This document shows, in pieces, positions 14,904-22,520 of a stretch of DNA of 64,000 nucleotides. A program made the translations under genes and the position numbers. Source of the DNA: Eubacteriales bacterium. Its GTDB lineage: Bacteria; Bacillota; Clostridia; Oscillospirales; CAG-272. Numbering within the stretch: the first letter of the stretch is position 1; each line of letters starts with the position of its first letter. The stretch covers positions 12,631 through 76,630 of the forward strand of contig JAZKYZ010000022.1 of assembly GCA_045612385.1 (NCBI GenBank), written 5' to 3'. The notes under the pieces were generated by a model. It saw nothing but the letters and a program-made list of their open reading frames with translations. It was not told the origin of the DNA and searched no databases.

Positions 14904-15055
14904 TGTTCTACCTCCATTTAAATTCAAATAAAAAATCCCTTCCGGCATAAAGACATAACTATACCGAGAAAGGACACACAAACAAAATATTTGATTTGAT
15001 GTCGCCTCGGCAGGAAAGCTATGCTTTTACTGGAACCTGCTGTCTTAGGATAACA
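14904..15055 (-). promoter_or_regulatory. ribosomal protein L10 leader (autoregulatory attenuator), putative
   Basis: About 150-nt 5' UTR between a consensus promoter and rplJ. It contains CCUAAGACAGCAGG...CCUGCCGAGG helices and a terminator-like hairpin (UCCUUUCUCGGUAU/AUGCCGGAAGGGA) followed by U6 just before the SD. Confidence 0.55.
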
Positions 15056-15060
15056 CAAGT

Positions 15061-15089
15061 ATTATACACGATTGAACGCTGTTTGTCAA
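15061..15089 (-). promoter_or_regulatory. consensus promoter for rplJL
   Basis: Minus strand: TTGACA (15089-84), 17-nt spacer, TG-extended TATAAT (15066-61). Confidence 0.75.
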
Positions 15090-19451: not shown

Positions 19452-19480
19452 ATTATAACATATGATTGCCATTTTGTCAA
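19452..19480 (-). promoter_or_regulatory. consensus promoter
   Basis: Minus strand: TTGACA (19480-75), 17-nt spacer, TATAAT (19457-52). Confidence 0.7.
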
Positions 19481-19502
19481 CAAATATATCGACCTCTTCT
19501 GC

Positions 19503-19545
19503 GAGAAAAATGAGGAGAGAGTTCAGTTGGGGGCCGAACTCTCTC
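19503..19545 (-). terminator. intrinsic terminator
   Basis: Perfect 11-bp stem GGAGAGAGTTC/GAACTCTCTCC followed on the minus strand by TCATTTTTCTC. Confidence 0.7.
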
Positions 19546-19582
19546 CTGAATTTAGAATTATTTATTTTGTCTGGTAGACTGT

Positions 19583-19662
19583 GGGACGGATGCAGACCAA
19601 TATGCTTGCTTTGCAAGCATTTGTTCCGAAGTGCGCTACCCCTGCCAAAACAAAAGGACGCA
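19583..19662 (+). repeat. 80-nt palindromic pseudo-tRNA element, copy A
   Basis: 77/80 identical to copy B. The centre is a perfect palindrome, ATGCTTGC-TTT-GCAAGCAT. The 3' 28 nt (19635-62) are identical to the reverse complement of 19864-91, which is the tRNA-Gln 3' end, CCA and trailer. Confidence 0.85.
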
Positions 19663-19677
19663 CAAAGGCGTTGCCTT

Positions 19678-19728
19678 CGCTGGGTTTTCGCCCTCGCTGG
19701 GTTTTCACCTTCGCTGGGTTTTCGCCTT
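19678..19728 (+). repeat. 3 x 17-nt tandem repeat
   Basis: CGCTGGGTTTTC(G/A)CC(C/T)T starts at 19678, 19695 and 19712. Confidence 0.9.
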
Positions 19729-19779
19729 CGGCGAATATCCTTGTCCCTTGCCGTTATCTCGCGAGCGGATATCGTCTAG

Positions 19780-19859
19780 GGGACGGATGCGGACCAATAT
19801 GCTTGCTTTGCAAGCATTTGTTCCGAAGTGTGCTACCTCTGCCAAAACAAAAGGACGCA
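19780..19859 (+). repeat. 80-nt palindromic pseudo-tRNA element, copy B
   Basis: Direct repeat of copy A, 197 nt downstream. Its 3' end forms an inverted repeat and terminator hairpin with the tRNA-Gln 3' end. Confidence 0.85.
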
Positions 19860-19881
19860 TTTCTGCGTCCTTTTGTTTTGG
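19842..19881. terminator. bidirectional terminator shared by tRNA-Gln and repeat copy B
   Basis: CCAAAACAAAAGGACGCA-TTTC-TGCGTCCTTTTGTTTTGG; the GC core is flanked by U-runs in both orientations. Confidence 0.8.
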
Positions 19882-19953
19882 CAGGGGTAGCTGGATTCGG
19901 ACCAACGAATGCAGGAGTCAAAGTCCTGTGCCTTACCGCTTGGCTATACCCCT
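19879..19953 (-). tRNA. tRNA-Gln (anticodon UUG), atypical
   Basis: The 75-nt cloverleaf is AGGGGUA UA GCC AAGCGGUAA GGC A CAGGA CUUUGAC UCCUG CAUUC GUUGG UCCGAAU CCAGC UACCCCU G CCA. CCA is encoded. It has an A1-U72 pair and C at position 55. Confidence 0.8.
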
Positions 19954-19970
19954 TTGAAATTAACATTCGA

Positions 19971-19999
19971 ATTATAACACAAATTTCAGGCAATGTCAA
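19971..19999 (-). promoter_or_regulatory. consensus promoter for tRNA-Gln
   Basis: Minus strand: TTGACA (19999-94), 17-nt spacer, TATAAT (19976-71), about 18 nt upstream of the tRNA 5' end. Confidence 0.75.
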
Positions 20000-20069
20000 G
20001 AGTAAATCAAGAAAAAGTACAAAATTCTGTTTTTCTACGTGCTTCTAAAGGGTAAAGAAGGTTTTATTC

Positions 20070-20098
20070 TTGAGATTTTGGCATATTCTTGCTACAAT
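20070..20098 (+). promoter_or_regulatory. possible promoter
   Basis: TTGAGA (20070-75), 17-nt spacer, TACAAT (20093-98). Confidence 0.4.
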
Positions 20099-20130
20099 AA
20101 AATTGCAACAACAAAGGAGGTTTTTTATTA

Positions 20131-20168
20131 AAAAAAGGGACACCTAAAGCTTTGGGTGTCCCTTTATC
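20131..20168. terminator. bidirectional hairpin terminator
   Basis: AAAGGGACACC/GGTGTCCCTTT stem. It is preceded by A7, which gives U7 on the minus strand, and followed by TTTAT. Confidence 0.7.
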
Positions 20169-20188
20169 GTTTCTTTATCAGAGGTCAC

Positions 20189-20217
20189 TTGACAAAGATG
20201 TAATCTTTGTGTATAAT
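20189..20217 (+). promoter_or_regulatory. consensus promoter driving the tRNA-mimic RNA and downstream ORF
   Basis: TTGACA (20189-94), 17-nt spacer, TG-extended TATAAT (20212-17). Confidence 0.8.
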
Positions 20218-20223
20218 AAAAAT

Positions 20224-20421
20224 GTGCTAATGGTGCTTACTTCATGTGGAAAGCGCAATAAGTGCCATATTTTCACACGGGCGGTTGCTATTCGGGTTTA
20301 CTTCTAACTTGTAAGGGCCGGAGGTTGTGGGTTCAAATCCCACCCTGTCCCACAGGGCAGGTGGCGCAACGGTAGCGCACCGGAATGGTTAATCCGGAAT
20401 TTTCATCCGCCCACCTTTTTT
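20224..20421 (+). ncRNA. structured RNA with circularly permuted, acceptor-capped tRNA-like core (YrlA / bacterial Y-RNA-like)
   Basis: 5' hairpin 20230-39/20259-68. Closing helix GGGCGG (20279-84)/CCGCCC (20407-12). The core at 20322-97 runs in this order: variable AGGUU, T arm GUGGG-UUCAAAU-CCCAC, acceptor 3' strand CCUGUCC, cap CACA, acceptor 5' strand GGGCAGG, UG, D arm GCGC-AACGGUA-GCGC, A, hairpin CCGGA-AUGGUUAA-UCCGG. U6 at 20416-21. Ends are predicted only. Confidence 0.65.
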
Positions 20422-20445
20422 AAATGATTGTTTTGGGAGGGAAAT

Positions 20446-22476
20446 ATGAAAAGCATTTTTGAAAAGTTTTTATTTTCCAAAGGGTATCTTATCGGCAAAG
20501 AAGTGTCGGAATATGCTTTTGAGTACGCTTTTGCAATGGCAAATATGTTTGGCGTTCGCCTTGTGCGTGGGCGTGAATATGCTTCGCAAGAGCATTTGGA
20601 ATTTCTGTCGCAAGAAATGGGCCGAGATGTACCTCCCTCTTTTTATCGTGGTTTCCCTGAGAGTGTAAAAAAACTCTCACGCGCCGAACTTTTCTTTGAC
20701 CAACTCCTCCATTATACCAAAACATACGGTTTTGGAGATTTTGAAAATCCTGATTATTCACGGTTTGAGGAAGATTTTGAGAGATGCGCTTTTAAGGAGG
20801 ACGTCACCCCTCGTGATTTTTCTATAATTAAAGAAGAAGAAGCCAAAGAGATTCTCACGTCGTTTGTAGAAGCGTTGCTGAATGGCTCGCGCCCACTCTC
20901 CACCGACCAATATAATGTGGTTCTGTCCTACTACAAGGAATACGAAGCTCTGCCCTGCGCTCCACACGCAAAGAATACAGCCATTCGTCTGTATGTAGAT
21001 ACCGGTGTGCTTGATTTTTGCGATTCGCTCTGGCTCTCAGACGTCATCAAGGTATGCGCCGAGATACAATATCGCAAGTATTTCAGCGAGGATCTTTGTG
21101 ATTTGCACCTGAAGGGTGCTGATAGAAAACTTCTTGCCGACCTCATTCATAAATTGATTGCTGATGGCAAGAGCAACATCACCGAGTGTTACGAAAAGAA
21201 GAAACTGTGGCAGGGAATGCTCCATCACATTCACCTGAAACCACAGAGCGAAGAGGAAATCGAATTCCTGAAGGCGATGCGTACTCGTGGAAATCACTCC
21301 ATCTATTCCACCGTAGAGCGCGCGCTTAAAAAGGGGGATATCCCCTTTGCCGTAACGACACTGTATGAAGGCAAGGGTGGTGGCGCTGTGCTTCGCGAGC
21401 TCAATTATCTCGTCAGTCGCGCCGAGGACAAAAACGATATTCGCTTTATTCTCTCACATATAGACGCCTCCCCAATTTTGCTCTTACAGTTATATTTGTC
21501 CTATATCACTTACGCCTTTGAGGGTGGCAGAGTTTTCCGTTTCACAAGATTTAACAGACTTTGCACGCACAATGAAACCGAAGAAGAAATTGAACACCGT
21601 CGCTCCAGACTGGATGAGAAAACGGTCGCATATCTGCGCGAATACTGCGAGGAAAAATTAAAGGAAATTCTCTGTGGCAAGGTAGGAAAGGTATACATTG
21701 ACAAGGAGATGTATCAAATCGCTCTGCCGATTTCCGAAGCGAGCACTAAGGGTGGCATAGGCGTTCTCCCACGTGGCTCACGCTTGCCCCTGCCAAAGGG
21801 AAAGAAAATACGCGCCTTCACCTATTGGGAGCAGGTCAACGACATTGACCTTTCTGTGCTCGGCTTTTCAGAGGACGGAACAATGAGCGAGTTTTCCTGG
21901 CGCACAATGTGGGAAAATCAAGGAAAATGCATCACCTTCTCAGGTGACCAGACCTCTGGCTTCCAGGGTGGCTCGGAATATTACGATATCGTATTTGACG
22001 CATTTACCAAGAAATATCCCAATACAGCGTACCTTGTCTTTGCTAACAATGTCTTTTCAAATATGCATTTCAATGAATGCGTATGTCGCGCAGGTTATAT
22101 GATGCGTGATACTCGTGATAGTGGACAGGTATTTGAGCCAAAGACGGTGGAATCGTCCTTTGTGATAGACGCCGACAGCACCTCAGCGTACCTTTTCGGC
22201 ATTGACCTGCTTCGGCGTGAGTTTGTTTGGCTTAATATGGCGAATCGCTCCGAGATGCACATTGCAGCGCTTCAGAACGCCTCCTTCCTTCTCGATTACT
22301 TCCATATCACCGAGCATATGAATGTCGGCAAGTTTTTTGAATGGATGGCAAAAGAGGTGGTTTCCGACCCGATGGACGCCGATATTGTCCTTGCTACGCA
22401 CGAGGTGCCACACCGTGAAGATGCTGAAGTAATCCGTCGTTTTGAATACGAAAAGATCCTCAAATATTTAGGATAA
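20446..22476 (+). CDS. 676-aa protein: N-terminal helical TROVE-like (Ro60/Rsr-like) region fused to a C-terminal TerD-fold domain
   Basis: SD GGGAGGG lies 4 nt before the ATG at 20446. Residues ~455-600 fit the TerD pattern (FTYWE..DIDLSVLGF..FSW..ITFSGDQTSGFQGGSEYYDIVF..YLVFANNVFS..CRAGYM..SAYLFGIDLLRREFVWLNM). Residues 225-355 carry TROVE-like motifs in order. The CDS itself is confident; the domain assignment of the N-terminus is inferential. Confidence 0.6.
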   Translation: MKSIFEKFLFSKGYLIGKEVSEYAFEYAFAMANMFGVRLVRGREYASQEHLEFLSQEMGRDVPPSFYRGFPESVKKLSRAELFFDQLLHYTKTYGFGDFENPDYSRFEEDFERCAFKEDVTPRDFSIIKEEEAKEILTSFVEALLNGSRPLSTDQYNVVLSYYKEYEALPCAPHAKNTAIRLYVDTGVLDFCDSLWLSDVIKVCAEIQYRKYFSEDLCDLHLKGADRKLLADLIHKLIADGKSNITECYEKKKLWQGMLHHIHLKPQSEEEIEFLKAMRTRGNHSIYSTVERALKKGDIPFAVTTLYEGKGGGAVLRELNYLVSRAEDKNDIRFILSHIDASPILLLQLYLSYITYAFEGGRVFRFTRFNRLCTHNETEEEIEHRRSRLDEKTVAYLREYCEEKLKEILCGKVGKVYIDKEMYQIALPISEASTKGGIGVLPRGSRLPLPKGKKIRAFTYWEQVNDIDLSVLGFSEDGTMSEFSWRTMWENQGKCITFSGDQTSGFQGGSEYYDIVFDAFTKKYPNTAYLVFANNVFSNMHFNECVCRAGYMMRDTRDSGQVFEPKTVESSFVIDADSTSAYLFGIDLLRREFVWLNMANRSEMHIAALQNASFLLDYFHITEHMNVGKFFEWMAKEVVSDPMDADIVLATHEVPHREDAEVIRRFEYEKILKYLG

Positions 22477-22481
22477 AAATG

Positions 22482-22520
22482 TCCCCACTGATGATTCGTT
22501 CGGTGGGGATATAATTTTTT
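22482..22520 (+). terminator. intrinsic terminator
   Basis: TCCCCACTG/CGGTGGGGA stem followed by a T-rich run (ATAATTTTTTATTTT). Confidence 0.8.

Follow-up and report, generated by a model that had tools for sequence, protein, structure and literature searches.

To date, the Y RNAs, and with them the related tRNA mimics of bacteria, have been defined through the protein that they pair with, Ro60. In the bacterial YrlA RNAs the elements of a tRNA follow each other in circularly permuted order, and a YUAY element is located after the basal stems (Chen et al. 2014, PMC4201824; YrlA structure, bioRxiv 10.1101/312249). Moreover, Thermus phage phiLo carries two Y-like RNAs (Yrl1 and Yrl2) directly upstream of its Ro60 gene, which bind the protein (PMC12135203). 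Here, we describe an RNA-protein cassette for which Ro60 with its Y RNAs appears to be the closest analogue. It is located at positions 20189-22512 of a stretch of 64,000 nucleotides from an Eubacteriales bacterium (contig JAZKYZ010000022.1), hereafter termed the window, and comprises two small structured RNAs and the gene of a 676-amino-acid protein without TROVE features. An earlier reading of positions 19452-22520, hereafter the original prediction, had taken the entire 3 kb for one unit dealing with tRNAs. All features it listed are present at roughly the positions given there, though some corrections were needed, and the part of it that joins the permuted tRNA mimic and the protein encoded downstream in a single functional unit was supported. 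The cassette consists of the following features:

20189-20217, plus strand: sigma-70-type promoter TTGACA-17-TATAAT with 12 of 12 matches, conserved in the related loci L081 and L087
about 20223-20278, plus strand: small RNA module 1 of the simple type, identified with covariance model R1
20279-20412, plus strand: small RNA module 2 of the YrlA type, identified by a sub-threshold Rfam YrlA match and covariance model R2
20446-22476, plus strand: gene of the 676-amino-acid protein, with the ribosome-binding site GGGAGGG 6 nucleotides before the ATG
22479-22512, plus strand: intrinsic-terminator-like hairpin that ends the cassette, identified in a hairpin scan

The predicted transcription start of the cassette lies near position 20224, and no other promoter-like site was found between the promoter and the open reading frame. 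Module 1, which is located between the promoter and the mimic and had been missed in the original prediction, consists of the stem P1 (UGUG/CACA), the motif GCUA, the stem P2 (20230-20238 with 20260-20268), the motif UUACUUC, an apical loop of 16 nucleotides, and AUUUUC. The base of module 2 is formed by P1 (GGGCGG/CCGCCC), UUGCUA, P2 (20291-20298 with 20391-20398), and UACUUC. Its apex is a circularly permuted tRNA-like domain with an anticodon-stem-like helix of 4 base pairs, a T arm with GGUUCAAAUCC, a closed acceptor-like stem of 7 base pairs, and a D arm, followed downstream by a run of U residues at 20416-20421. In line with the permuted tRNA mimic proposed before, a permissive search yielded a match to the Rfam family YrlA (RF02553) at 20278-20416 with 37 bits and an E-value of 1e-5, which does not reach the gathering score of 69, and the tRNA elements follow each other in permuted order.

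To place these RNAs, 80 genomic loci encoding homologues of the protein were fetched and their upstream regions were compared. Cultured carriers include Eubacterium uniforme ATCC 35992 (L008), Lachnospiraceae AC2029 (L023), and Eubacterium ruminantium FB3002 (L050). Nearly all of the fetched bacterial loci contain one to three tandem modules with a common plan, namely P1, (C)AGCUA, a P2 of 8 base pairs, UUACUUC, a variable apex, P2', RAUAUC, and P1', where UUACUUC is nearly invariant. The modules fall into three classes: 54 are plain hairpins, 28 are intermediate, many of them with a lone T-arm hairpin, and 44 carry a permuted tRNA-like insert of 80-90 nucleotides. The structure of these RNAs is established by covariation. 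In a structure-blind alignment of 52 simple modules, P1 at fixed offsets and P2 with partners picked for pairing showed 86.8% of cells paired, as compared to 31-43% with slid partners; the covariation score was 0.80 versus 0.28 in shuffles, and changes on both sides were observed in 13 of the 14 pairs. The 44 tRNA-like modules were analyzed with RNAalifold and a model of six helices (P1, P2, the anticodon-stem-like helix, the T arm, the closed acceptor-like stem of 7 base pairs, and the D arm). Here, 94.2% of cells were paired versus 37-45% when slid, compensatory changes occurred in 29 of the 34 pairs, all six helices were supported, and no shuffle attained any of the five measures.

Two covariance models were built from bacterial sequences only, R1 from the 52 simple modules and R2 from the tRNA-like modules. 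In the window each model yielded a single match at the expected module, which is itself a seed sequence of the respective model: R1 at 20219-20281 (46.3 bits, E-value 5e-8) and R2 at 20280-20411 (102.6 bits). R2 likewise recovered the bacterial loci L100 (115.6 bits) and L103 (95.6 bits), which are not part of its seed. However, this model also gives moderate scores at junctions of two genuine tRNAs in tandem, where the T arm of one is joined to the D arm of the next (L040, 5046-5174), and partial matches inside tRNA arrays were therefore ignored. Ten related modules matched Rfam YrlA with 31-47 bits, all below threshold, and no family in Rfam 15 captures these RNAs at threshold. Thus, R1 and R2 cover unannotated structured RNAs that are currently missed by Rfam. 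In addition, one module departs from the permuted order: at 2794-2924 of L065, a metagenome-assembled genome labelled Anaerolineae, the GCUA/UUACUUC platform is retained, and the tRNA-like insert runs from D arm through anticodon-like arm to T arm, which is the normal order.

The linkage of the RNAs to the protein gene is strict across phyla and phages. A scan with a strict motif over 81 loci (~0.8 Mb, both strands) returned 132 modules, 126 of which are located 40-750 nucleotides upstream of the homologue gene on the same strand. This zone constitutes ~3.5% of the sequence searched, and it contains modules in 71 of the 81 bacterial loci. In the bacterial loci, the start codon follows the final module after a median of 34 nucleotides, and a U-run follows 24 of 70 last modules and 42 of 122 modules overall. 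At locus L070 (3209-3514), two modules directly follow a tRNA-Leu gene ~2.5-2.6 kb upstream of the protein gene, indicating that something has come between.

The same arrangement is found in viruses. Although searching IMG/VR for exact matches to the module consensus of the Clostridia yielded nothing, a protein-based scan found 21 viral loci encoding a homologue (contigs of 18-233 kb), approximately 19 of which are matched by R1 or R2. All 42 R1 matches and 41 of the 42 R2 matches are located on the strand of the gene and directly beside it; the remaining one, in L110, is partial and covers a tRNA. The viral modules, up to six per locus, are located upstream of the gene in most loci and downstream in L127-L129, where the protein identity is 23-24%. 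A tblastn search furthermore yielded 15 phage records with a homologue; with one exception, these belong to large phages (115-485 kb). In the five GenBank phage records that were examined, such RNAs adjoin the homologue, often inside tRNA arrays:

Mycobacterium phage WXIN: five variant modules in tandem (CAGGCUC-N8-CUUUCAU...UUUCCCUG) upstream of the homologue
Lactobacillus phage LpeD: two modules with GCUUACUUC upstream of the homologue
Rhodobacter phage RcXuper: at least four modules, one of them tRNA-like, upstream of the homologue, with a nucleotidyltransferase and a tRNA-Tyr after the gene
Rhodococcus phage Weasels2: four modules, one of them tRNA-like, directly downstream of the homologue, with four tRNA genes upstream
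Fecal phage contig MT835874 (L092, 710-2090): tRNA-Met, tmRNA (tag ANNRCLAAA), tRNA-Trp, tRNA-Glu, and tRNA-Met, followed by four variant modules (UUCCUUCU) and the homologue

Full-length R2 matches were obtained beside the homologue of Weasels2 (67.8 bits, E-value 1e-12) and of RcXuper (53.7 bits, E-value 2e-9). Eight of the 21 IMG/VR loci lie inside arrays of 3-12 tRNA genes, as do Weasels2, RcXuper, and the fecal contig. Among the bacterial loci, a tRNA gene is located within 1 kb in 12 of 80, and three loci are embedded in large tRNA arrays. The tRNA-related role put forward in the original prediction thus remains plausible, given the phage cassettes inside tRNA gene arrays and these 12 bacterial loci. 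In three Lachnospiraceae loci (L040, 3067-8952; L044; L056), the cassette was observed mid-way in a co-directional array of up to 28 tRNA genes. Conserved protein-coding neighbours, such as RtcB, PNPase, or nucleases, were not found among the homologue loci. On the metagenome contig L103 (7406-12034), the cassette is followed by a 1323-amino-acid open reading frame of no known function and a coupling protein of the TraG/VirD4 type, which suggests that this copy resides on a conjugative element.

The protein itself belongs to a large family. We retrieved 822 homologues at E-values of at most 1e-3, mostly from Lachnospiraceae and other Clostridia, which are unnamed or annotated as 'hypothetical' or 'TerD family protein', with some entries named 'tellurium resistant like protein', and an exhaustive profile search grouped the family into 2452 clusters at 50% identity. 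The window protein matches phrog_33734, a family of unknown function, with an E-value of 2e-24, as did all three proteins scanned. An AlphaFold2 model with a pLDDT (predicted local distance difference test) score of 80.7 shows helical repeats at residues ~130-410, a beta-sandwich at 440-610, and then a small C-terminal alpha/beta part. When this model was compared with BFVD by Foldseek, full-length matches to phage proteins were obtained (best E-value 6.5e-41, TM score 0.81), including those of the Campylobacter phages IBB35 and CP21 and of Lactobacillus phage LpeD, all of them members of the family itself.

The original prediction had called the protein Ro-like and TerD. The first label found no support, and a relative of Ro60 or TROVE proteins was rejected on the basis of Pfam, a profile search of PDB sequences, and Foldseek with both the full and the N-domain model. 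No Pfam domain was detected in the window protein, and TROVE was found neither there nor in 46 homologues and 10 distant members. The family profile retrieved nothing from the PDB sequences, and no Ro60 even at E-values of up to 10. Foldseek with the full model returned nothing significant from the PDB, and neither a Ro60 nor a TerD structure was among the matches listed; the best E-values for the full and N-domain models were 0.03-0.08. The model of the N-domain (pLDDT 81.9) matched only generic helical repeats such as TPR, 14-3-3, Pumilio, and designed repeats at E-values above 0.07, with no Ro60 among the matches listed. Moreover, in place of a ring fold with a C-terminal vWA domain and its metal-ion-dependent adhesion site, the AlphaFold2 model has an all-beta sandwich as C-terminal domain. 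The TerD label found weak support. Pfam TerD (PF02342) does not match the window protein and matches 3 of 46 homologues (best E-value 0.0021), and hhalign against a TerD sequence, which scores 293 bits with Pfam TerD, gave an E-value of 0.12 over 112 columns in the expected register. The beta-sandwich is thus weakly TerD-like. Membership in NCBIfam NF041916, the MXAN_6230/SCO0854 RING-domain family, was likewise rejected: the match reached 104 bits as compared to a cut-off of 600 and covered only model positions 385-715 of 842, and not the full length with the N-terminal RING domain.

All 46 aligned homologues share the motif C-x-E-K-K...G-L-L-H-H-x-H at residues 248-263 (window positions 21187-21234), in which C248, E250, K252, H260, H261, and H263 are invariant. 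Judged from this conservation, the cluster of C248, E250, H260, H261, and H263 could be a metal-binding or catalytic site. In addition, many invariant Arg and Lys residues are found among the conserved positions.

The likeness to the Ro60 systems extends over several levels. As in YrlA and YrlB, the 5' and 3' ends of the modular RNA pair in a long stem with an internal loop, which in the known RNAs is the protein platform, and a variable effector module is placed on top. At least one RNA per locus carries a permuted tRNA body of the YrlA kind, with a T arm, a closed acceptor-like stem, and a D arm but neither an anticodon loop nor CCA, and a YUAY element follows the basal stems. As for Ro60 and Y RNAs, the protein gene has several paralogous RNAs in tandem beside it on its own strand, and the system is found in large phages as well as in many bacterial phyla. 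In contrast to YrlA, the Ro-binding motif GNCGAAN0-1G is absent; its place is taken by (C)AGCUA on the 5' side with RAUAUC opposite, and the window has GGCGGUUGCUA. Likewise, YrlA is expected on the same strand within ~4 kb of a Ro60 orthologue with a TROVE domain, whereas the adjoining, strictly linked gene here encodes a protein without TROVE features. Helical repeats and a beta-sandwich replace the HEAT ring and vWA domain of Ro60, a single locus can hold as many as six modules, one class of which bears the T-arm hairpin only, and linkage to rtcBA or further RNA-repair genes is absent. As for the TerD proteins of the tellurite-resistance (Ter) stress systems, the C-terminal beta-sandwich (~440-610) can be aligned in register with the TerD motifs D-x-D-L-S and G-D-x-T-G...E and with the hydrophobic strands, whereas the Ter operon context (terZABCDE, TelA, vWA) is missing and the N-terminal helical domain of 430 residues is absent from classical TerD proteins. 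The combination of T loop and D loop imitates a tRNA elbow in a manner reminiscent of tmRNA and viral tRNA-like structures; unlike these, the mimic is closed by a loop, is grafted on a putative protein-binding stem, and has no free CCA end and no sign of aminoacylation, coding, or anticodon function.

Taken together, we consider it rather probable that the cassette encodes a ribonucleoprotein of the Ro60/Y-RNA kind, in which the protein partner is a different one and the function concerns tRNA. The deep and strict gene linkage, together with a shared platform bearing interchangeable apices, argues that RNA and protein are a functional pair; we infer physical binding of the RNA, its release by processing, and a function related to tRNA. 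One promoter would transcribe the two Y-RNA-like RNAs and then, by read-through, the mRNA of the protein. The shared platform, consisting of P1, the asymmetric internal loop (5' GCUA, 3' AUAUC-like), the P2 of 8 base pairs, and UUACUUC, would be the binding site of the co-encoded protein. Of the two apices, one is a plain hairpin and the other is a closed permuted tRNA body with T and D loops but without anticodon and CCA end. This body may present a tRNA-shaped surface to a tRNA-handling factor and thereby serve as tether, decoy, or gate, as proposed for Ro60 with YrlA. Since the cassette is found within the tRNA clusters of large phages, it would most likely serve in the surveillance, repair, or protection of tRNA, in phage-host conflict or under stress.

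What appears to be new is a YrlA-type tRNA-mimic RNA with a different, uncharacterised partner protein and a putative binding platform of its own. In the literature we found no TerD-like or phrog_33734 protein described in connection with Y-like or tRNA-like RNAs, although there may be an earlier mention. A broader proposition, to which we would give an even chance, is that this is a second, hitherto unrecognised class of Y-RNA-type ribonucleoproteins. In this class, a family of ~680 amino acids (phrog_33734) would bind modular RNA arrays including permuted tRNA mimics via GCUA/UUACUUC in gut Clostridia, other phyla, and the tRNA clusters of large phages; it would act on tRNA-handling enzymes or tRNA-targeting toxins and would have arisen independently of Ro60 or by replacing Ro60 as the partner of YrlA-like RNAs. 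An RNA family of this type is thus linked to a protein other than Ro60, in a cassette that recurs in hundreds of gut Clostridia and large phages. If the ribonucleoprotein model is correct, the combination of stem platform and tRNA mimic is a reusable RNA module and not a peculiarity of Ro60, and a large protein family of no known function gains its first functional handle. The phage cassettes within tRNA clusters moreover point to an unexplored layer of tRNA-centred phage-host biology.

Several observations speak against a ribonucleoprotein. The protein has no recognisable RNA-binding domain, and given its invariant C-x-E...LLHHxH motif it may be an enzyme and not a scaffold. About ten of the 81 bacterial loci have no detectable module within 750 nucleotides; some of these have truncated upstream sequence, the modules of L066 were missed by the regular expression, and those of L070 are the distant ones described above. 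The enrichment of tRNA genes near bacterial cassettes is modest. Finally, the short gap to the start codon and the low number of U-runs indicate that the bacterial RNAs are part of the 5' untranslated region and could act in cis. This leads to the main rival explanation, according to which the modules are cis-acting leader elements, either autoregulatory operators or sensors of a tRNA-handling factor, that control read-through or translation downstream and are not partners in a trans-acting ribonucleoprotein. The layout of the bacterial loci fits such elements, as the modules are co-oriented with the gene and directly upstream of it, with no promoter separating modules and open reading frame in the window, and the U-run after P1' of module 2, as after 42 of 122 modules, resembles a terminator or attenuator. 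However, in Weasels2 and the distant viral loci L127-L129 the gene precedes the modules, in L070 the modules are located ~2.5-2.6 kb upstream of it, and an extra module of L080 is on the opposite strand. Their copy number ranges from one to at least six with mixed module types, a conserved expression platform is not visible, and a simple operator would hardly account for an entire tRNA body whose T and D loops are conserved. We therefore regard purely cis-acting leaders as unlikely; moreover, autoregulation by the protein at its own leader would need the same protein-RNA contact and is compatible with the ribonucleoprotein model.

Another reading is a gated effector akin to type III toxin-antitoxin systems, in which the tandem RNAs would restrain a potentially harmful enzyme until it is released by RNA damage or an infecting phage. 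We consider this reading improbable, more so than the cis-acting leaders. In its favour, tandem structured RNA units directly precede the protein gene on its strand as in the ToxIN family, in some cases with a terminator-like U-run in between; the invariant residues C248, E250, H260, H261, and H263 could form a metal or active site, and the cassette occurs in phages and once beside a conjugation gene. The RNA units, however, are divergent paralogues with differing stems, some of them tRNA mimics, and not near-identical repeats. The protein of ~680 amino acids is much larger and bears no similarity to ToxN, AbiE, or CptN; a PADLOC search for defence systems yielded only a marginal BrxB match (E-value 3e-4) and no ToxN-like match. 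In addition, the cassette is stably syntenic among chromosomal housekeeping genes in the lineage of the window. The proposal that the 3 kb as a whole constitute one island, mobile or functional, or are what remains of an element that entered at the tRNA-Gln gene, is already largely refuted, and we consider it very improbable. Three copies of the tRNA 3'-end (GCTACCCCTGCCA) superficially resemble att-site duplications, and three perfect promoters and several strong terminators are crowded into 1 kb. The copies are, however, inverted relative to the tRNA and not direct, the block contains no open reading frame for an integrase or recombinase, as had been noted before, and a check of its composition returned a G+C content of 0.44-0.48, the same as in the flanks. 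Furthermore, the order DUF896, tRNA-Gln, RNAs, protein, and Na+/H+ exchanger is kept in the closest relatives, namely the gut metagenome contigs L081, L083, and L087 and the sheep-colon Clostridia metagenome-assembled genome L001, whose proteins are 61-81% identical to that of the window; the block is thus resident and not a recent insertion. In 80 genomes and in over 25 phage loci, the small RNAs and the protein are the only parts that stay together. The features of the left half (tRNA-Gln, two hairpin elements, repeat, and 'orphan' promoter and terminator) are limited to these four relatives, and none of them accompanies the protein gene in the 76 more distant bacterial genomes, which carry the cassette without tRNA-Gln or hairpin elements. 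A metagenome scan for the conserved linker-hairpin core (CTGGGTTTTCGC..GCGAATAT) yielded seven chance matches, all in coding regions.

The stretch 19452-22520 is thus composed of two unrelated neighbours side by side, the RNA-protein cassette and a tRNA-Gln locus at 19452-20170, in which the tRNA-Gln is a neighbour outside the conserved cassette. The features of this locus are:

19879-19953, minus strand: tRNA-Gln(UUG), whose CCA is encoded and whose T loop has C55 (ARAGORN; Rfam tRNA, 63 bits)
19999-19971, minus strand: sigma-70 promoter of tRNA-Gln, 12 of 12 matches
19480-19452, minus strand: sigma-70-type promoter, 12 of 12 matches
19513-19547, minus strand: terminator-like hairpin, identified in the hairpin scan
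19583-19662, unstranded: hairpin element A, 80 nucleotides, 96% identical to element B, without the full terminator
19780-19875, unstranded: hairpin element B (19780-19859) with a bidirectional terminator (19840-19875) shared with tRNA-Gln, identified by repeat comparison and folding
19673-19730, unstranded: tandem repeat of 17 nucleotides, 3.4 copies, a local expansion of one arm of a small hairpin
20070-20165, plus strand: promoter-like 10 of 12 match (20070-20098), GGAGG Shine-Dalgarno-like box, and strong hairpin (20134-20165)

With the cassette promoter at 20189-20217, the three perfect promoters of the original prediction are accounted for, and the insulating terminators correspond to hairpins at 19513-19547 (minus strand), 19840-19875, 20134-20165 (plus strand), and 22479-22512 (plus strand). 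In 5 kb, 16 terminator-like hairpins were counted, as compared to 5.8 +/- 2.5 in shuffles. The tRNA-Gln(UUG) is the one tRNA detected in the window by ARAGORN and Rfam. It had been termed atypical; its cloverleaf is canonical with the anticodon UUG, and the sole oddity is a C instead of U at position 55 of the T loop (GGUCCGAAUCC). Position 55 is almost always a U (Psi55) in tRNAs. This C55 is kept in the four relatives, in which the tRNA is nearly invariant in the intergenic alignment, with a single substitution in L081.

The two hairpin elements had been described as pseudo-tRNA palindromes. The 80-nucleotide elements exist, but they constitute a direct repeat with no further copies in the 64 kb, and over their 3' 42-51 nucleotides they repeat the 3' end and trailer of tRNA-Gln in inverted form (86% complementarity), which explains why GCTACCCCTGCCA occurs three times where 0.05 occurrences are expected. 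The 3' end of tRNA-Gln with its terminator would thus have been duplicated in inverted orientation, giving rise to one or two structured, lineage-specific hairpin elements. On the plus strand of element B, an acceptor-like stem closes a long hairpin with the end GCUACCUCUGCCA. Together with the shared terminator, element B folds with z = -8.3 (plus strand) and -8.0 (minus strand), whereas element A alone folds no better than shuffled sequence (z = -0.2 and -1.1). Three relatives keep element B, the central stem of which shows three compensatory pairs (AUGCUUGC/GCAAGCAU to GCUCUUGC/GCAAGAGC); element A is present in L081 and degenerate in L083. As candidates for tRNAs or known RNAs both elements were rejected: ARAGORN found none, and Rfam returned only spurious microRNA-type hairpin matches. 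The tandem repeat was confirmed and derives from a conserved small hairpin (UUUUCGCC-UUCG-GCGAA), one arm of which is expanded into the 17-nucleotide repeat here and is single-copy in the relatives.

L083 lacks the segment 20070-20165, and in L081 and L087 its sequence has diverged; its 'orphan promoter' reaches only a 10 of 12 match. The segment probably insulates the cassette promoter, which lies downstream of it. Within 20100-20170 on the plus strand, the strong Shine-Dalgarno-like box AAAGGAGG is followed by a possible mini open reading frame of 6 codons (AUU AAA AAA AGG GAC ACC UAA), which overlaps the 5' arm of the 14-base-pair hairpin at 20134-20165, is poorly conserved in the relatives, and is absent in L083. 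Elsewhere in the window, a ribosomal protein L10 leader was detected at 14921-15067 on the minus strand (Rfam RF00557, 51.6 bits, gathering score 44), an ordinary cis-regulatory element unrelated to the cassette.

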